From a virus (taxonomy: Duplodnaviria; Heunggongvirae; Uroviricota; Caudoviricetes), in the IMG/VR virus record IMGVR_UViG_2713896795_000003, positions 1-37,123 of that record: a DNA stretch of 37,123 nucleotides. One strand, written 5' to 3'. Each line of letters begins with the position of its first letter. Position 1 is the first letter of the stretch. Both the position numbers and the translations under genes were made by a program. Shown in pieces: positions 3,742-10,163 of the stretch. The notes beneath the pieces are model-generated. The model was not told where the DNA came from. It saw nothing but the letters and a program-made list of their open reading frames with translations, and searched no databases.

Positions 3742-4041
3742 TCAAATAAGTGGTTTGCTGCCTAATTTCATTTTCTGGCGACCAACACAAGTCACCCCCA
3801 TTTCACTGCGTGGCTTGCGGTAGTAAATACGGTTCTGTTTACGCTCGACTTCTTCTGCCTTCTTGCAGCGAAGGCTTCCGAGTGATGCTGCTTTATCTGC
3901 TCTGACGCAACCAGAGAGCTTTAGCGCAATTTTTCGCGCCAGTCGCTGCTCTTGCATTGCCTGTTCACGTTGAGCCTGTCTGCGTGCTCTGCGGCGATTT
4001 CTGGCGTTATCGTCAGCCAGATATGTAATGACTACTGTCAT
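3742..4041 (-). CDS. N: Antitermination protein N-like
   Basis: Arginine-rich motif NARNRRRARRQAQ near N-terminus; C-terminus ...VTCVGRQKMKLGSKPLI resembles lambda N ...ITCSGRQKIKGKSIPLI; GGAGG SD; sits downstream of nutL on the pL transcript. Confidence 0.75.
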   Translation of the reverse strand: MTVVITYLADDNARNRRRARRQAQREQAMQEQRLARKIALKLSGCVRADKAASLGSLRCKKAEEVERKQNRIYYRKPRSEMGVTCVGRQKMKLGSKPLI

Positions 4042-4354
4042 GTTGACCTCCGATGAAACAACTTTGGAAATTTTTTTATTACAAAGTGGTTTCCTTCCCC
4101 GCCAATTAGACGGGGATGGAAGAGCATTTATGAGCCTTCATGGACTCTGCTCGATCAGTTCTATTTAATTAATCTCTCAACTGAATGTAAGTATTCACAT
4201 AAATCCTCCTACCTCTTGTGCAGCTTTCTTGAATATGGTGGCGGCTGCATAACGCCTATGGAATTGACTTTGGCGGTGACGCGCCGGGTGCTTATCTTCC
4301 GGTTGCCGTCGTGCAGCTGCACTTCACGTCACCCCAAAGCCAACTACTCTTTGG

Positions 4355-4397
4355 TTCCCGCATTTCGGCGGGACAATCCCATCAATGTTAAAGAGCC
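4355..4397 (-). promoter_or_regulatory. nutL (boxA GCTCTTTAACA + boxB hairpin)
   Basis: Minus-strand reading gives GGCTCTTTAACA, 12-nt spacer, then hairpin TCCCGC-CGAAAT-GCGGGA; exact inverted copy of the element downstream of cro. Confidence 0.6.
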
Positions 4398-4436
4398 TGC
4401 CAATCTGTTCCGTTTGGCTTCCAGCGTCCTGCTGAT

Positions 4437-4510
4437 GGCTTAAATTTAAGATCTCTTTAATTAATGGTCAAGAGTATTTTTGAAGAAAACTTAAATTTTC
4501 TTTCGTAACT
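4437..4510. promoter_or_regulatory. pL promoter with OL operators
   Basis: Minus-strand -35 TTGACC (4466-4471) and -10 TTAAAT (4444-4449) with 16-nt spacer; 18-bp ATTTAAG-N4-CTTTAAT operator at 4444-4461 and weaker TTAAG-type repeats to 4510. Confidence 0.45.
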
Positions 4511-4533
4511 TAAGTTTGGCTTTGATTTTTAAA

Positions 4534-4562
4534 GGAAATAAAAAAAGGGGCGAATGCCCCTT
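4534..4562 (-). terminator. Intrinsic terminator downstream of repressor gene
   Basis: Minus-strand hairpin GGGGCattcGCCCC followed by TTTTTTTATTT, starting at the cI stop codon. Confidence 0.7.
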
Positions 4563-5211
4563 ATGGAAGGTTTGCTAGTTTTGCATCGACAACTACGCCG
4601 ATGATTTTGCAGTTTCCGTTGATCTCGATCATCGGATATTGTGGGTTAAGTGGTTTTAGAAACTTCCTGCCTGCATCAATAACTAACTTTTTGAAAGTTG
4701 CCTCGTTTTCTCCTTCGAGCTTTGCAACTACCAGTTTCCCGTTACGCGGCTCTACTTCAGGATCGACGAGTATTATCATTCCTTCAGGGATACTGAGACC
4801 GGCTGGAGCCGTCATTGAGTCTCCCTTCACGTCCAACCAAAACGAATCTTCTGAACAGTCTACGGTTGTATCGTACCAGTTATCTATTGCACGCTTATGA
4901 TATGGTTCTACAGCTTCCATCCAGCATCCTGCGCTCACCCAGCTAATCAGAGGGTATGACCCTCTTGGATCATGCCTACTGTGATAGGCAATGTTTGAAA
5001 GACTTTCCTCTCCTTTCATCAGATAGTCAGGGGAACACTTCAACGCATTAGCCAGGGCGAGAAGATTCTCTCCATTTGGCTCTGTCTCAGAGCGTTCCCA
5101 CTGAGATATGGCAACATTAGACACGCCGACCATCTTTCCAAGTGCGGCCTGCCTGATCTTGAGTTCTTTTCTCCGAGCGCGAATGCGCTCTCCCATCAAT
5201 TGAGTTTTCAT
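4561..5211 (-). CDS. c2: CI-type repressor (P22 c2-like; HTH + S24 LexA-like autocleavage domain)
   Basis: 216 aa; N-terminal HTH; C-terminal FWLDVKGDSMTAPAGL...ATFKKL...PLNPQYPMIEINGNCKIIGVV matches lambda CI / P22 C2 from memory; leaderless ATG abutting OR3. Confidence 0.9.
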   Translation of the reverse strand: MKTQLMGERIRARRKELKIRQAALGKMVGVSNVAISQWERSETEPNGENLLALANALKCSPDYLMKGEESLSNIAYHSRHDPRGSYPLISWVSAGCWMEAVEPYHKRAIDNWYDTTVDCSEDSFWLDVKGDSMTAPAGLSIPEGMIILVDPEVEPRNGKLVVAKLEGENEATFKKLVIDAGRKFLKPLNPQYPMIEINGNCKIIGVVVDAKLANLP

Positions 5212-5277
5212 AGTTAAGACATCTTAAATAAACTTGACTTAAGATTCCTTTAGTGGATAATTTAAGTGTTCTTTAAT
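5212..5277. promoter_or_regulatory. OR operators (three 18-bp sites) with pR and pRM
   Basis: Sites AGTTAAGACATCTTAAAT (5212-5229), ACTTAAGATTCCTTTAGT (5237-5254), ATTTAAGTGTTCTTTAAT (5260-5277); pR -35 TTGACT 5234-5239 and -10 ATAATT 5257-5262. Confidence 0.6.
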
Positions 5278-5291
5278 TTCGGAGCGAGTCT

Positions 5292-5477
5292 ATGTACAAG
5301 AAAGATGTTATCGACCACTTCGGAACCCAGCGTGCTGTAGCTAAAGCGTTAGGCATTAGCGACGCAGCAGTCTCTCAGTGGAAGGAAGTCATCCCAGAGA
5401 AAGACGCCTATCGACTGGAAGTCGTTACAGCTGGCGCCCTGAAGTATCAAGAAAGCGCTTACCGCAAAGCGGCATAA
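5292..5477 (+). CDS. cro: Cro repressor (P22-type, 61 aa)
   Basis: MYKKDVIDHFGTQRAVAKALGISDAAVSQWKE... recognised as P22-like Cro from memory; GGAG SD. Confidence 0.85.
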   Translation: MYKKDVIDHFGTQRAVAKALGISDAAVSQWKEVIPEKDAYRLEVVTAGALKYQESAYRKAA

Positions 5478-5483
5478 GCAAAT

Positions 5484-5529
5484 TGCTCTTTAACAGTCAT
5501 GGTCCTCATTCCCGCCGAAATGCGGGAAT
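5484..5529 (+). promoter_or_regulatory. nutR (boxA TGCTCTTTAACA + boxB hairpin)
   Basis: boxA 5484-5495; hairpin ATTCCCGC-cgaaat-GCGGGAAT 5508-5529, 12-nt spacing. Confidence 0.6.
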
Positions 5530-5534
5530 ACAAC

Positions 5535-5570
5535 GCGCATAAGTTGATGCGCATAACTTCTTATTTGTTA
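5535..5570 (+). terminator. Candidate tR1-like terminator
   Basis: Hairpin GCGCAT-aagttg-ATGCGC followed by interrupted T-rich tract; weak. Confidence 0.25.
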
Positions 5571-5610
5571 AGGAAATACTTACATATGGTTCGTGCAAAC
5601 AAACGCAACG
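5565..5610 (-). promoter_or_regulatory. pRE-like CII-activated promoter (TTGC-N6-TTGC)
   Basis: Minus strand TTGCGTTTGTTTGC (plus 5595-5608) overlapping cII start, as in lambda pRE. Confidence 0.45.
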
Positions 5611-5879
5611 AGGCTCTAAGAATCGAGAGTGCGTTGCTTAACAAAATCGCAATGCTTGGAACTGAGAAGACAGCGGAAGCTGTGGGAGTTGATAAGTCGC
5701 AGATCAGCAGGTGGAAGAGGGATTGGATTCCAAAGTTCTCAATGCTGCTTGCTGTTCTTGAATGGGGCGTCGTCGACGACGATATGGCTCGATTGGCACG
5801 ACAAGTTGCTTCGATTCTCACCAATAAAAAACGCCCGGCGGCAACCGAGCGTTCTGAACAAATCCAGATGGAATTCTGA
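5586..5879 (+). CDS. cII: CII transcriptional activator (lambda type, 97 aa)
   Basis: [47 protein letters not shown]... matches lambda CII from memory; the ORF-track start at 5499 is an extension through nutR. Confidence 0.9.
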
Positions 5880-5900
5880 GGTCATTACTGGATCAATCCA
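5824..5900 (-). ncRNA. oop: oop-like antisense RNA (placed by analogy with lambda)
   Basis: cII 3-prime end and the following ~30 bp resemble the lambda oop/pO region; minus-strand GC-rich hairpin followed by U-run near 5825-5850; coordinates approximate. Confidence 0.4.
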
Positions 5901-5911
5901 CAGGAGTCATT

Positions 5912-6058
5912 ATGACAAAACAACTCAGTCCTTACCAGGACAAAATTCACAAACACATACTACGTGATCGCTTCCTGTCCAGCTTCAAGCAGCCTGGTCG
6001 ATTCCGGGCTGAGTTGGAAAAAGTGAAGCTGATGCAGAAGGAGAAAGGTCATGAGTAA
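5912..6058 (+). CDS. Small hypothetical protein (48 aa)
   Basis: Hand-translated [21 protein letters not shown]...; AGGAG SD 7 nt before ATG; stop overlaps O-like gene start. Confidence 0.45.
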
Positions 6059-6911
6059 TCTTGCAACCGTAACACATTTAAGGCCTTCACAACGGCCTGT
6101 GGAGCGTCGTGTGGCAGAAGTTGAAGATGGTTATACCCGTCTTGCAAATGCCCTGTATGAAGAGCTTATCGGCGCAGATTTAACGAAAAATCAGAGCAAG
6201 GTTGCCCACGCCATATGCCGTAAAACATACGGCTACGGTAAAAAGATGGATCGCATTTCTGATAGTCAGTTAGCTCAAATTACCAGGCTGCCAAGACAGA
6301 AGGTAAACAAGGCCAAGAATGAGCTTATCGCGATGAAGGTTATCCTTCGCGAAGGCCAGCAAATCGGGCCTAACAAGAACATCGAAGAATGGCAAATCGA
6401 AGGGTGTCACTACTCTGGTGATAATGTCACTGCATTGGTGACAAAAAGTGTCACCAAAACGGTGACAGCGCTGTCACCAAAACAGGGACACACAAAAGAA
6501 ACTATTACAAAAGAAAAAAGAAATAATAAAAACACTATGTCCGAAAGTGTTCGGACGGAGTGTGAAAAATCATCTGACCGTCACGAAGAAACCGACAAGG
6601 CATTCGAGGAAATATTCTGGTGTGCAGGCATGCGGAAAGCCGGGAAGAAAAACGCGGCTTCGGCATTCAGAACACAGTTCAGGGAATGGCGTAAAACTAC
6701 CAGGGGTACGGCAAGCGAGTTTGCCACGATGCTGGCAGAAGACATCGCATGCAGGAATGGTAAGCAGTTCGGATTCGACAGGTTGTTACCATCGAGCTAC
6801 CTGAACGGTCAGCGCTGGAACGACGAGAAGCCAGAAACTATTCAACCACAATCCAAACCATCATCCGCAATCACCGTATCGAAAACTGGCTACGTGTTTT
6901 TCGACAGGTGA
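6051..6911 (+). CDS. Replication initiator, lambda O-like N-terminal domain
   Basis: N-terminal [36 protein letters not shown]...[13 protein letters not shown]...[11 protein letters not shown] resembles lambda O; iterons lie inside the gene; C-terminal half unlike lambda O. Confidence 0.8.
6405..6535. repeat. Replication origin: four TGTCAC(C)-N5/6-GGTGACA iterons plus AT-rich tract
   Basis: Repeats at 6405-6490 (e.g. TGTCACCAAAACGGTGACA) followed by ACAAAAGAAACTATTACAAAAGAAAAAAGAAATAATAAAAACAC, inside the O-like gene as in ori-lambda. Confidence 0.7.
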
Positions 6912-7018
6912 ACCATGAAATCAAAAATCAAATCGCTACTGGTCGCTGGTTATAACCACGGCTGGTTAAGTATTTCGTTTGTCGATTTCTGGTTTAAAAA
7001 TCTCAATCTGAGGGAATC

Positions 7019-8899
7019 ATGACGCCAAGTGAACTTAGCGACCTGCTTTGGGCGCAGGTTGACAGGGTGGCTCCGCACCTGTTGCCAAACGGCAAGAAAG
7101 AGGGGCATGAGTGGGTTGCCGGTAACGTCAACGGTGACAAGGGAAACAGCCTTAAGGTCAACCTTAGCGGCAAGAAAAAATGGGCTGATTTCGCTGAGGG
7201 AGACGGCGGTGACATGCTTGATTTGTGGATGGCATGTCGTGGAATTAACCTGCATCAGGCTATGCAGGAAGCGAAAGCCTTTCTCGGAATCAAGGATGAC
7301 GATCACCATTTCGATGCCAAACGTGAGAAGAAATTCTCCAGACCTGACCGCAAGAAAATCGCCCGCTACGTTACCAGAACAGAATCCCATCTTGAGTACC
7401 TGCAATCGCGTGGCATATCGCCAGAAGTCGTAAAGCGCTACGAGGTTGTCAGCGGCAAGGTGTGGAATGGAGAACGAGAACTTGATGCACTGGTGCTTCC
7501 GTACAAACGCGATGGTGAGTTGTTGCAGGTCAAGCGAATCAGCACTGAGCGCCCGGACGGGAAGAAAGTCATTATGGCAGAAGGTGATTGCGAACCTTGT
7601 CTGTTCGGATGGCAGGCTCTGGACGCTGGCGTGAGGGCGGTTGTACTTTGCGAAGGCGAAATTGATTGTATGAGCTATGCGCAATACGGCATCTCGGCGT
7701 TATCCGTGCCGTTTGGTGGCGGGAAAGGCGCTAAGCAACAGTGGATTGAGTTTGAGTATCACAACCTCGACAGGTTTGAGGAAATATTCATCTCGATGGA
7801 CGTTGATGATGTTGGTCGTGAAGCCGCAAGGGAAATCGCAAGCCGACTCGGTGAACATCGTTGCCGTCTTGTTACTCTGCCGTACAAAGACATCAACGAA
7901 TGCCTGATGAACGGTGTTACCGAGGATGAAATCTGGCAGTACATCGGCACGGCATCCTACTTCGATCCTGAAGAACTCTACAGCGCGCGAGAGTTTTACC
8001 AGGACACTATCAACGCTTTCTACGGCAAGCAGCAGTATCTGTTTAATCCACCGTGGGAATCTCTGGCAGATAAATTCCAGTTCCGTGAGGCCGAGTTGAC
8101 GCTGGTCAATGGTGTGAACGGTCACGGAAAAACGGAGGTTGTCGGGCATATGGCGCTTGAGGCAATGCGTCAGGGTGTGAAGACGTGCATCGCGTCACTT
8201 GAGCTGAAGCCAGGCATTCTCCTTAAGCGACTTACCCGTCAGGCGACGTGCTGCAAGATGCCGCCAGTGCTGGAAATTGACTCTGCATTTAAATTTTATG
8301 ACGAAAGACTTTGGGTGTTTGGCCTGACCGGAACGGCGAAAGCCGACAGGCTGATCGAAATATTCGACTACGCTCGCCGCCGATACGGCATCCAGTTATT
8401 CATCATCGACAGCCTGATGAAATGTGGCATAGGCGACGATGACTATAACGGGCAGAAGGCGTTTGTTGACTCGATTTGCGATTTCAAAAACAAAACAAAC
8501 TCCCACGTCATTCTCGTTACTCACTCGCGAAAAGGTGACAGCGAAGAAAAACCAACCGGGAAAATGGACGTAAAAGGCTCTGGAGCGATAACAGACCTGA
8601 CAGACAACCTTTTCATCATCTGGCGTAACAAGGCTCGCGAGAGAGCGTTACAGAGAGTTCAGAGTGGTGAAAAGATGTCAGAGAAGGACGAACAGCTACT
8701 GGCATCTCCGGCATCTGTTTTGATGCTTGAAAAGCAACGTAACGGCGAAGGTTGGGAAGGTGGTGTCCCGTTGTTCCTTGACGAGCAATCGCACCAGTTC
8801 CTGCAACTTGAATCAGGATCGCCATATAGCTACATCGCCAATATGCCGAAATCGGAATATGACGAGGCGTGGCGACAGGAAAACGTGACGGAGTATTAA
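7019..8899 (+). CDS. Bifunctional DNA primase/helicase (Toprim + DnaB-like ATPase)
   Basis: 626 aa; Toprim-like VVLCEGEIDCMSYAQYG and DVDDVGREAA; Walker A GVNGHGKT; Walker B LFIIDSL. Confidence 0.8.
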   Translation: MTPSELSDLLWAQVDRVAPHLLPNGKKEGHEWVAGNVNGDKGNSLKVNLSGKKKWADFAEGDGGDMLDLWMACRGINLHQAMQEAKAFLGIKDDDHHFDAKREKKFSRPDRKKIARYVTRTESHLEYLQSRGISPEVVKRYEVVSGKVWNGERELDALVLPYKRDGELLQVKRISTERPDGKKVIMAEGDCEPCLFGWQALDAGVRAVVLCEGEIDCMSYAQYGISALSVPFGGGKGAKQQWIEFEYHNLDRFEEIFISMDVDDVGREAAREIASRLGEHRCRLVTLPYKDINECLMNGVTEDEIWQYIGTASYFDPEELYSAREFYQDTINAFYGKQQYLFNPPWESLADKFQFREAELTLVNGVNGHGKTEVVGHMALEAMRQGVKTCIASLELKPGILLKRLTRQATCCKMPPVLEIDSAFKFYDERLWVFGLTGTAKADRLIEIFDYARRRYGIQLFIIDSLMKCGIGDDDYNGQKAFVDSICDFKNKTNSHVILVTHSRKGDSEEKPTGKMDVKGSGAITDLTDNLFIIWRNKARERALQRVQSGEKMSEKDEQLLASPASVLMLEKQRNGEGWEGGVPLFLDEQSHQFLQLESGSPYSYIANMPKSEYDEAWRQENVTEY

Positions 8900-8976
8900 A
8901 TGACCATCTACATCACTGAGTTAATAACAGGCTTGCTGGTAATCGCAGGCCTTTTTATTTGGGGGAGAGGGAAGTC

Positions 8977-9417
8977 ATGAAAAAACTAACCTTTGAAATT
9001 CGATCTCCAGCACATCAGCAAAACGCTATTCACGCAGTACAGCAAATCCTTCCAGACCCAACCAAACCAATCGTAGTAACCATTCAGCAACGCAACCGCA
9101 GCTTAGACCAGAATCGAAAGCTTTGGGCTTGCCTTGGTGACGTCTCTCGTCAGGTTGAATGGCATGGTCGCTGGCTGGATGCAGAAAGCTGGAAGTGTGT
9201 GTTTACCGCAGCATTAAAGCAGCAGGACGTTGTTCCTAACCTTGCCGGGAATGGCTTTGTGGTAATAGGCCAGTCAACCAGCAGGATGCGTGTAAGCGAA
9301 TTCGCGGAGCTATTAGAGCTTATACAGGCATTCGGTACAGAACATGGCGTTAAGTGGTCAGACGAAGCGCGACTGGCTCTGGAGTGGAAAGCAAGATGGG
9401 GAGACAGGGCGGCATGA
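8977..9417 (+). CDS. ninB: NinB recombination protein
   Basis: [37 protein letters not shown]... matches lambda NinB from memory; start at 8977 (ORF-track frame begins 18 nt earlier). Confidence 0.85.
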
Positions 9418-9590
9418 GGCGACAGCGACGAAGTTTCACCGACATCATCTGCGAAAACTGCAAATACCTTCCAACGAAGCGCTCCAGAAATAAATGCAAG
9501 CCAATCCCAAAAGAATCTGACGTAAAAACCTTCAACTACACGGCTCACCTGTGGGATATCCGGTGGCTAAGACATCGTGCGAGGAAATGA
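9414..9590 (+). CDS. ninE: NinE
   Basis: [27 protein letters not shown]... ; ATGA overlap with ninB stop. Confidence 0.75.
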
Positions 9591-9994
9591 CAATGCTTTT
9601 AATTCAACCTGGATTTGGACTTAGCATCAAAAAAGGCCACATGTTTGGCGAGAAAGAGTCACAACGAAAAATGGTGTCTATCCGGTTGCCATTTATCAGT
9701 ATTTATTGGCTAAACAGGGAGGCAACAAATTATTGGTATACATGCGCCAGAGCAGCATTTAACGACCCTGACTGGTTTGTGAAAAACCACCACGCAGTTC
9801 GTCAGGCAAAGAGAAAGGCCAACATGACATACATGAAGGCGTATCAAAAAGCATGGAAAGAACACCGCGATCGATACCAGCAAGACATGGAAAAGCTTGA
9901 ATCAGAAAACATGGAATTAAGACGAAAGCTTGGTGAAGCAAAACGAGACATTGATGCTTACAAGCGACTTTTTAATGGTGAAAGCCATGCTTAG
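9587..9994 (+). CDS. Hypothetical nin-region protein (135 aa)
   Basis: ATG overlaps ninE stop (ATGA); coiled-coil-like basic C-terminus; family not recognised. Confidence 0.55.
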
Positions 9995-10163
9995 CCCATC
10001 CCAATCCCTTCAATACCAGAAAGAAAGCGTCGAGCGGGCTTTAACGTGCGCTAACTGCGGTCAGAAGCTGCATGTGCTGGAAGTTCACGTGTGCTCCGAT
10101 TGCTGCGCAGAACTGATGAGCGATCCGAATAGCTCAATGTACGAGGAAGAAGACGATGAGTGA
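9987..10163 (+). CDS. ninF: NinF
   Basis: [36 protein letters not shown]... matches lambda NinF from memory. Confidence 0.75.
   Translation: MLSPSQSLQYQKESVERALTCANCGQKLHVLEVHVCSDCCAELMSDPNSSMYEEEDDE

Follow-up and report, generated by a model that had tools for sequence, protein, structure and literature searches.

A lambda O-type initiator with an internal iteron origin and a T7 gene 4-like primase-helicase in the replication module of a P22-like Escherichia coli prophage

In a P22-like E. coli prophage, a lambda O-type initiator gene with an internal origin is followed by a primase-helicase gene resembling gene 4 of phage T7; this is its replication module. We confirmed this arrangement in IMG/VR virus record IMGVR_UViG_2713896795_000003, a stretch of 37,123 nucleotides called the window here (Table 1). 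From the gene content, and from the co-inheritance of the C-terminal domain of the initiator with the helicase, we infer that initiator, helicase and primase would form a self-contained system working without a P-type loader. The module itself is already known, and the ES18 record (AY736146) carries a like annotation. Because it had been sequenced and annotated before in mEp043, Sf101, ES18, epsilon34 and phi24B, we regard it as real but ordinary. The literature covers this type of module in epsilon34, phi24B and the Anderson typing phages, and the epsilon34 paper names the region the ES18-type replication region (PMC2629481); our literature searches found no experimental work on the replication module.

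Table 1. Features of the replication module, in window coordinates.
Feature	Position	Strand	Evidence
O-like replication initiator gene, 286 aa	6051..6911	+	ORF; Phage_rep_O; mEp043/Sf101 DNA 98.9% identical, annotated 'DNA replication protein O'
N-terminal origin-binding domain, aa 20-114, lambda O type	6108..6392	+	PF04492, TIGR01610; identity to lambda O
Iteron 1, TGTCACTACTCTGGTGATA	6405..6423	.	Pattern match and shuffle test
Iteron 2, TGTCACTGCATTGGTGACA	6425..6443	.	Pattern match and shuffle test
Iteron 3, TGTCACCAAAACGGTGACA	6449..6467	.	Pattern match and shuffle test
Iteron 4, TGTCACCAAAACAGGGACA	6472..6490	.	Pattern match and shuffle test; spacing as in lambda
AT-rich tract, presumed DNA-unwinding element and joint between mosaic modules	6491..6535	.	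GC; lambda/ES18 alignment; chimera joints
14-nt inverted repeat right of the AT tract	6532..6563	.	86% complementary; kept in ES18 also
Initiator C-terminal domain core, aa 179-259, small helical domain without Pfam/NCBIfam entry	6585..6827	+	
Conserved 35-aa ORF, ES18 gp60 homologue	6915..7022	+	phrog_21848 E 4e-26; stop overlaps primase-helicase start (ATGA)
T7 gp4/Twinkle-like primase-helicase, 626 aa	7019..8899	+	T7 gp4, Twinkle, phrog_239; 'DNA primase/helicase' in mEp043, 720R6, SEN22
DnaG/T7-type zinc-binding-domain homologue, aa 26-90, four zinc ligands missing	7094..7288	+	TIGR01391; no CxxC
Toprim domain, aa 209-296, acidic motifs EGEID, DVDD, KDINE	7643..7906	+	PF13155; T7 alignment
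SF4 (RecA-fold) helicase domain, aa 355-594: Walker A GHGKT, Walker B IID, motif H3 His	8081..8800	+	AAA_25, DnaB_C, T7 gp4 alignment

Across all 2849 bp, the module DNA is matched at 98.6-98.9% identity by mEp043, Sf101 and vB_EcoP-720R6 (98.9% for the first two), and SEN22 matches it at 91.4%. These four phages share the iterons of the window, its 35-aa ORF and its primase-helicase, without any difference of substance, in surrounding genomes that are mosaic. The annotations in the relatives read 'DNA replication protein O' and 'DNA primase/helicase', the latter in mEp043, 720R6 and SEN22. The module is present in 298 of the 5426 complete E. coli genomes. Neither lambda P, nor DnaC, nor a second helicase was found between O and ninB, and an Rfam scan of positions 4000-10000 returned no credible RNA. 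The original prediction had left the 35-aa ORF at 6915-7022 unmentioned; a gene for an HNH endonuclease parts it from the helicase in some relatives.

The initiator had been described as having a lambda O-type N-terminal domain, four iterons and an AT-rich tract inside its own gene, and a C-terminal half unlike that of lambda O, and our searches bear out all three statements. Pfam Phage_rep_O (PF04492) matches aa 20-114 with an E of 1.1e-37 and TIGR01610 matches the same domain with an E of 1.6e-30, both above the curated cut-offs, and BLASTP aligns the protein with lambda O at 49% identity over aa 1-157. A PDB sequence search with the initiator gave no solved relative at E<=1 except one chance match. 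The iterons, four palindromes of 19 bp, lie just after the part of the gene coding for the N-domain, and each fits TGTCAC-N7-GTGACA with 0-1 mismatch. When the window was shuffled (n=200), matches never numbered more than 2 in any 100 bp, and 2 were reached in 3 shuffles only. Their start-to-start spacing (20/24/23) is that of the lambda iterons, annotated at 39034, 39054, 39078 and 39101. Directly to their right, the AT-rich tract has a GC content of 20%, against a window mean of 46.7% and within the lowest 0.3% of 45-bp windows, and it is near-identical to the tracts of lambda and ES18.

Across loci, different types of N-domain come with different iteron sequences. The TGTCAC..GTGACA iterons accompany close relatives of the window N-domain and TTAGC..GCTAA iterons its distant relatives, while ATCCCTC..GAGGGA iterons go with the N-domain of lambda and ES18, and GGGGCAGGAGCTGCCC repeats with the HTH_36 N-domain of phi24B.

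The C-terminal domain of the initiator does not resemble that of lambda O. BLASTP found no similarity to lambda O past aa 157, and hhalign, run with a profile of 26 C-domain sequences against lambda O aa 140-299, returned a probability of 0.1%; homology to the C-terminal, P-binding half of lambda O was therefore rejected. Searches of Pfam (at E<=10) and NCBIfam with the C-domain gave no family match, and its profile produced against the PDB one chance match only (E 0.06). The domain belongs to a family of 369 clusters that is absent from both Pfam and NCBIfam. Among 36 downstream ORFs scanned beside distant members of this family, 8 encode DnaB-type helicases, 5 IstB/DnaC-like ATPases and 3 lambda P, so that the fold is not specific to a gp4-like partner.

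The original prediction had called the next gene a Toprim-plus-DnaB-like protein and not a P-type loader. The next large gene does encode a Toprim and an SF4 helicase domain in 626 aa and is no P-type loader, and no match to P appeared in the related C-domain loci. The term 'DnaB-like' is loose, since the protein resembles T7 gp4 and Twinkle and gave no match to the DnaB N-domain (PF00772). Its closest solved relatives are T7 gp4 (E 2.7e-23, aa 192-539) and Twinkle (E 6.5e-14). Pfam assigns it Toprim_2 (PF13155, E 3e-12) and AAA_25, and DnaB_C scores 23.8 bits, under the 27-bit Pfam cut-off. The match to phrog_239 'DNA primase/helicase' (E 2e-171) places it in a replicative family, as had been proposed, and not in a non-replicative one. 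PADLOC found no match to a defence system, only similarity to Toprim proteins of the DnaG type, and we therefore rejected a role in defence.

The catalytic motifs are largely those of T7 gp4. The acidic Toprim motifs EGEID, DVDD and KDINE align with EGEID, DMDE and KDANE of T7, and the helicase motifs GHGKT, LE, IID, TH and GSGA (H1, H1a, H2, H3 and H4) are conserved. At the N-terminus, TIGR01391 (dnaG) matches aa 26-143 with an E of 9e-10, but this region contains no CxxC pairs, and a Cys4 motif is missing from the first 110 residues of every enterobacterial orthologue; the distant relative in locus L142 retains CPEC...CNHC. The position of the T7 arginine finger, R522, is occupied by Lys (DVKGSGA) in those enterobacterial orthologues that allowed the motif to be located. 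Given the missing zinc ligands and this Lys, full primase and helicase activity is not guaranteed.

Natural chimeras separate the two halves of the initiator, and the joints in PhiR12_1 and ES18 fall inside the AT-rich tract. In PhiR12_1, an N-domain and iterons of the window type (99.6%) are joined to the C-domain of lambda with P and Ren; in ES18, the N-domain and iterons of lambda are joined to a C-domain of the window type (96%), gp60 and the primase-helicase (94%). Across the chimeras, then, iterons travel with the N-domain and the C-domain with the helicase partner. We examined 19 diverse genome loci with C-domains sharing 44% identity or more with that of the window; the primase-helicase stands directly downstream in them wherever the downstream ORFs are intact, even next to an unrelated N-domain. 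It is likewise present in 79 of 80 IMG/VR loci, the remaining locus ending before the gene. No lambda P or loader gene was found in related loci carrying the window-type C-domain. Spearman correlations with primase-helicase distances (0.70 for the C-domain, 0.61 for the N-domain) are too close to discriminate between the two domains, and what does inform is a qualitative pattern: one N-domain gives way to another without homology to it, and the C-domain and primase-helicase never separate. Co-inheritance of the O C-domain and the helicase is also what would be expected of neighbouring genes in general.

These sequence comparisons point to a theta-type module of the lambda style in which, probably, the phage primase-helicase of the T7 gp4 type replaces the P loader as well as the functions of host DnaB and DnaG. 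The steps of such a mechanism are modelled on the lambda O and P22 gp18/gp12 systems. Bound by dimers of the N-domain, the iterons would be wrapped into an O-some, which would destabilise the AT tract with the aid of pR transcription through the origin. The C-terminal helical domain would then dock the primase-helicase onto the melted DNA. The hexamer would assemble there without a loader of the P or DnaC type, and no release step by DnaK/DnaJ/GrpE would therefore be needed. The helicase would unwind the DNA, the Toprim primase would lay primers and host Pol III would carry out synthesis. The C-domain (~85 residues, consensus AFExFWxAGMRK...FGFDKLHPTTYLNGERWNDE) is joined to four or more origin-binding N-domains that are unrelated to one another (Phage_rep_O, HTH_36, DUF1376 and DUF6291). 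In a more tentative proposal, which we think less likely than not, it would be a portable, partner-matching adaptor, each subfamily docking a specific helicase system. In the window it would load the gp4-like primase-helicase directly on the O-some without a loader, the 35-aa peptide possibly aiding, and the primase would do without a zinc finger.

The state of the primase bears on an alternative in which only the helicase half is active. A zinc-less N-domain could not recognise template sites, host DnaG would prime, and initiator and helicase would act as P22 18/12 do, the attached primase domain being vestigial. T7 gp4 without its zinc domain is not known to make template-directed primers, and the primase activity of Twinkle has been lost in animals; the loss of Cys4 from the first 110 residues throughout the enterobacterial orthologues, in a family where a distant homologue keeps it, would fit such a course. 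However, the Toprim acidic residues (EGEID, DxD, KDxNE) are strictly kept in orthologues down to 60% identity, and conservation is also high in the N-terminal segment that lacks the zinc ligands. Both points argue for selection on a working primase region, and we consider a dead primase unlikely.

The identity of the origin helicase and of its adaptor could also be read differently. The partners of distant C-domain relatives include loaders for host DnaB (lambda P, IstB/DnaC-like), and one could imagine that DnaB is still the origin helicase here, recruited by the C-domain of O directly or via host DnaC, with the phage enzyme serving another stage (late rolling-circle replication or restart) or protecting against interference by the host or rival phages. 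This is very improbable in view of the subfamily at 44% identity and above, where every locus whose downstream ORFs are intact has the primase-helicase after the C-domain and no loader gene, and of the lambda C-domain, which brings lambda P and Ren along when joined to the same N-domain and iterons; in P22, too, a phage helicase replaces DnaB. We give hardly any credence to the remaining possibility, that the 35-aa protein is the true adaptor or mini-loader between O-some and helicase and the C-domain has another job, such as oligomerisation or single-stranded DNA binding. The ORF lies between both genes wherever it is found, its stop overlaps the start of the helicase, and its protein sequence is kept in divergent loci. 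Against such a role, it was not detected in the gap of 8 of the 18 loci examined (including L098, L100 and L104, with gaps of 4-18 bp), all of which still keep the C-domain and the primase-helicase; the HNH endonuclease gene splits it from the helicase in some relatives; and the protein has no detectable homology to any loader. Docking of the primase-helicase by the C-domain is the reading we prefer.

The main value of these results lies in correct annotation. About 5% of complete E. coli genomes carry this type of module, as do some Shiga-toxin phages, and its genes are labelled there 'O' and 'P', although this 'P' is a helicase-primase and not a loader of DnaB. If the proposed mechanism is true, these phages should replicate independently of the host DnaB, DnaC, DnaG and DnaK chaperone system. 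Such independence would have consequences for host range, for drugs or defence systems that target the lambda P-DnaB step, and for the way in which conclusions drawn from lambda are applied to Stx phages. How initiator C-domains choose their helicase partner could be studied with the ready set that the natural chimeras offer (window, PhiR12_1, ES18 and phi24B).

Among known systems, gp59-gp60-gp61 of ES18, with which we group gp50-52 of epsilon34, are close to the module, with the same gene order and orthologous C-domain (96%), 35-aa ORF (97%) and primase-helicase (94%). In the ES18 record (AY736146), an internal rep_origin is marked as 'similar to lambda ori' and a product is listed as 'putative primase/helicase; similar to phage T7 gene 4'. 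The ES18 N-domain is of the lambda type (98% to lambda) with ATCCCTC..GAGGGA iterons, whereas that of the window is 53-56% identical and goes with TGTCAC..GTGACA iterons. With lambda O, ori-lambda and P, the window shares the N-domain family, an origin in the O gene, four palindromic iterons at a spacing of 20/24/23, the AT tract, and a location in the pR operon, with cII on one side and the nin genes on the other. It differs from lambda in its non-homologous C-domain, in the absence of P and ren, and in a partner that is a helicase-primase instead of a loader of host DnaB. Genes 18 and 12 of P22 follow the same logic, an O-like initiator and then a phage replicative helicase replacing the loader. 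P22 gp12 is a DnaB-family helicase without primase, and thus a precedent for a phage helicase replacing DnaB; the helicase of the window is instead gp4/Twinkle-like and fused to a Toprim primase. A comparison of module types in the literature terms the protein 'a nonhomologous primase-helicase protein' (PMC10307801). The 626-aa protein shares with T7 gp4 and Twinkle the domain order (zinc region, Toprim, SF4) and the catalytic motifs, but compared with T7 gp4 it lacks zinc ligands, has Lys at R522, carries an insertion of ~25 residues and ends in a longer C-terminal tail. Unlike both, it belongs to a temperate phage, with an initiator and an iteron origin and no phage DNA polymerase. Finally, 'O' and 'P' of the Stx phages phi24B and Min27 correspond to the module in the C-domain (95-97%), the 35-aa ORF (71%) and the primase-helicase (99% outside the insert). 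Their initiator N-domain, in contrast, is HTH_36 and not Phage_rep_O, their repeats differ, and their primase-helicase has an intein in the Walker A loop (PMC3430580), which that of the window does not carry.

As the original prediction had it, the N-terminal domain of the initiator is of the lambda O type: Pfam Phage_rep_O (E 1.1e-37) and TIGR01610 both recognise residues 20-114, and residues 1-157 share 49% identity with lambda O, with no relationship past that point. That prediction had also held that the C-terminal half is unlike lambda O. Indeed, we found no match to this half in Pfam, NCBIfam or PDB sequences, and when a profile built from 26 diverse relatives was compared with the C-terminal half of lambda O, hhalign detected no similarity (probability 0.1%). 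The half is a real, widespread domain (C-domain): with HMMER it reaches 369 clusters at E<=1e-3 among 1.84 billion cluster representatives, nearly always as the C-terminal part of 250-330-aa proteins, with the consensus AFExFWxAGMRK...FGFDKLHPTTYLNGERWNDE. According to the relatives' precomputed Pfam domains, its fusion partners at the N-terminus are Phage_rep_O, HTH_36, DUF1376 and DUF6291, and its AlphaFold model has a confident four-helix core (pLDDT about 90).

The iterons and AT-rich tract proposed inside the initiator gene were confirmed. Four iterons of 19 bp, each an imperfect palindrome TGTCAC-N7-GTGACA, are adjoined on the right by a tract with 20% GC, which places it among the 0.3% of 45-bp windows poorest in GC and is followed by a 14-nt inverted repeat. 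At up to two mismatches, about 1.5 matches to the iteron pattern are expected by chance in the whole 37-kb window, and 200 shuffles gave at most two per 100-bp span. A weaker fifth match, inside the primase-helicase gene, is within the chance expectation. The start-to-start spacing (20/24/23) equals that of the annotated lambda iterons (39034, 39054, 39078, 39101), and we take the offset from the start codon, 354 nt against 348 nt in lambda, as the same. The AT-rich tract can be aligned nearly base for base with those of lambda and ES18 and, as in lambda, iterons and tract together code for the linker that joins the two protein halves.

Features of the replication module and its surroundings
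Feature	Position	Strand	Remark
Terminator-like hairpin	5855-5828	-	strong, 12 pairs then T run; within cII-like gene
DUF2740 ORF	5912-6058	+	48 aa; Pfam E 9e-29; 8-nt overlap with initiator start
Initiator gene	6051-6911	+	286-aa ORF
Iteron 1	6405-6423		
Iteron 2	6425-6443		
Iteron 3	6449-6467		
Iteron 4	6472-6490		
AT-rich tract	6491-6535		
35-aa ORF	6915-7022	+	MKSKIKSLLVAGYNHGWLSISFVDFWFKNLNLRES; between initiator and primase-helicase
Primase-helicase gene	7019-8899	+	626-aa ORF
Primase N-terminus	7094-7288	+	
Weaker fifth iteron match	7121-7139	+	2 mismatches
Codon of Lys519	8573-8575		
Short hydrophobic ORF	8900-8980	+	begins directly after primase-helicase stop
Terminator-like hairpin	8929-8952		within span of short hydrophobic ORF

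Comparison of related loci shows that the iteron sequence goes with the type of N-domain. The palindromes measure 17-19 bp and their 20/24/23 spacing is constant while their sequence varies: TGTCAC..GTGACA in the window and in loci L090, L094, L095 and L098, with close relatives of its N-domain; TTAGC..GCTAA in loci L091 and L099, with distant relatives; ATCCCTC..GAGGGA in lambda and ES18, with the lambda type; and GGGGCAGGAGCTGCCC in phi24B, with HTH_36. The C-domain, for its part, goes with the downstream partner. In PhiR12_1 the window-type N-domain and iterons (99.6% identity) lead into a lambda C-domain with lambda P and Ren; in ES18 the N-domain and iterons are those of lambda, and the window-type C-domain, gp60 and the primase-helicase come next; and in phi24B and Min27 an HTH_36 N-domain is joined to the window-type C-domain and primase-helicase. 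The joints of all these chimeras fall within the conserved AT-rich tract. In phi24B, three GGGGCAGGAGCTGCCC repeats (L007 1398-1463, spacing 21 and 24) occupy the equivalent place in the HTH_36-type initiator gene, so even with an unrelated N-domain the origin keeps its place within the gene, ahead of the C-domain that these initiators share.

Among the 80 IMG/VR loci whose C-domain is nearly identical, 79 carry the primase-helicase and the remaining one ends before the gene. In a scan with one genome per species, a primase-helicase orthologue lies immediately downstream in 19 of 19 loci where the C-domain is at least 44% identical, five of which have an unrelated N-domain. The neighbours of more distant C-domains include DnaB-type helicases (8/36), IstB/DnaC-like ATPases (5/36) and lambda P (3/36). 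All in all, the fold thus serves initiators in general as a C-terminal module, with subfamilies that track their partner. Two Rodentibacter loci (L115 5294-5977, L116 2486-3175) encode C-domain-family initiators (38-43% identical) followed by a lambda P-type protein, despite the lack of detectable kinship between the lambda O C-domain and this family.

The next large gene encodes, as anticipated, a Toprim-plus-helicase protein. It matches Toprim_2 (E 3e-12) and AAA_25, with a DnaB_C match under the Pfam threshold, and phrog_239, 'DNA primase/helicase' (E 2e-171); among proteins of known structure it comes closest to T7 gp4 (E 2.7e-23) and Twinkle (E 6.5e-14). With respect to T7 gp4 it keeps Walker A (GHGKT), the H1a Glu, Walker B (IID) and the H3 His. 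Its Lys519 (DVKGSGA) aligns with R522 (RGSGA), the arginine finger of T7 gp4; this Lys is conserved in the enterobacterial orthologues where the motif could be located. A role in a defence system was rejected, the PADLOC match being Toprim/DnaG-type similarity only. Stx-phage orthologues (Min27, L004 1995-4903; phi24B, L007 1996-4902; L014; L028) contain an intein of about 330 aa in the Walker A loop (GHGK/ACPL...THN/TEVV), absent from the window protein, and in some IMG/VR relatives (L039, 4504-4998; L052, L055, L070, L073 and L075) a 164-aa ORF whose motifs suggest a free-standing HNH homing endonuclease separates the 35-aa ORF from the primase-helicase. With this insertion as well as the intein, the gene stands out as one that selfish elements target. 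In Min27 the gene also has a frameshift near the 3' end, by which 'ORF31 putative DNA primase' becomes a separate ORF.

The original prediction is correct in observation and interpretation alike, the demonstrated part being anatomy and co-inheritance, with a self-contained initiator-helicase-primase system as the likely reading. The most likely mechanism follows by analogy with lambda O/P and P22 18/12. The N-domain would bind the four iterons in an O-some, after which the AT tract would melt; the C-domain would recruit the phage primase-helicase, which would assemble on the DNA so opened with no loader of the P or DnaC type, unwind and prime, with synthesis by host Pol III.

Of the competing explanations we give most weight to an inactive primase, with priming by host DnaG. 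The primase N-terminus shares homology with the DnaG/T7 zinc-binding region (TIGR01391, E 9e-10), yet all four zinc ligands are absent from it across the whole enterobacterial clade of orthologues; the Toprim acidic motifs of T7 gp4 are kept. A Chryseobacterium relative (L142, 5294-5623), also downstream of a C-domain-family initiator, retains the zinc motif CPEC...CNHC. Next in weight is that the origin helicase is still host DnaB. Least weight goes to the 35-aa peptide as the actual adaptor. Its stop overlaps the primase-helicase start (ATGA), the protein is kept in divergent genomes (motif AGYNHG...WF.KL.LR) and corresponds to ES18 gp60 and phrog_21848, and the ORF was undetected in 8 of 18 related loci examined.

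Overall, the window represents a P22-like E. coli phage or prophage of mosaic composition (best matches vB_EcoP_Kapi1, 720R6 and CUS-3), and the module sits in its lambdoid immunity and early-right region, with a P22 c2-like repressor on the minus strand, cro, a cII-like gene and the DUF2740 ORF upstream, and NinB and nin genes downstream. The DUF2740 ORF holds the same position in mEp043, PhiR12_1 and ES18, and P22 orf48 is found under the same upstream segment. The hairpin within the cII-like gene, which has no Rfam match, lies at the place that the terminator of the oop antisense RNA occupies in lambda. The ES18 nin region has an annotated NinA-like gene of 81 bp, the length of the short hydrophobic ORF, located after an additional gene, gp62.

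The 2849-bp module is 98.6-98.9% identical in DNA to mEp043, Sf101 and vB_EcoP-720R6 and 91% to SEN22, all annotated with 'DNA replication protein O' and 'DNA primase/helicase', and it is found in 298 of 5426 complete E. coli genomes; our literature search found no experimental study of it. Mildly new are only four points: the C-domain as a widespread family without a Pfam or NCBIfam entry, the clean set of natural domain-swap chimeras, the zinc ligands missing from the primase N-terminus, and the Lys at the arginine-finger position. The ES18 record (GenBank AY736146) already lists gp59 'similar to phage lambda gpO', a rep_origin 'similar to lambda ori', gp60, and gp61 as 'putative primase/helicase; similar to phage T7 gene 4'; the epsilon34 replication region has been called ES18-like (PMC2629481), and the phi24B 'P' has been described as intein-bearing, combining TOPRIM with a GP4d helicase (PMC3430580). 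The finding adds one more, unremarkable member to a type of lambdoid replication module that is already documented.
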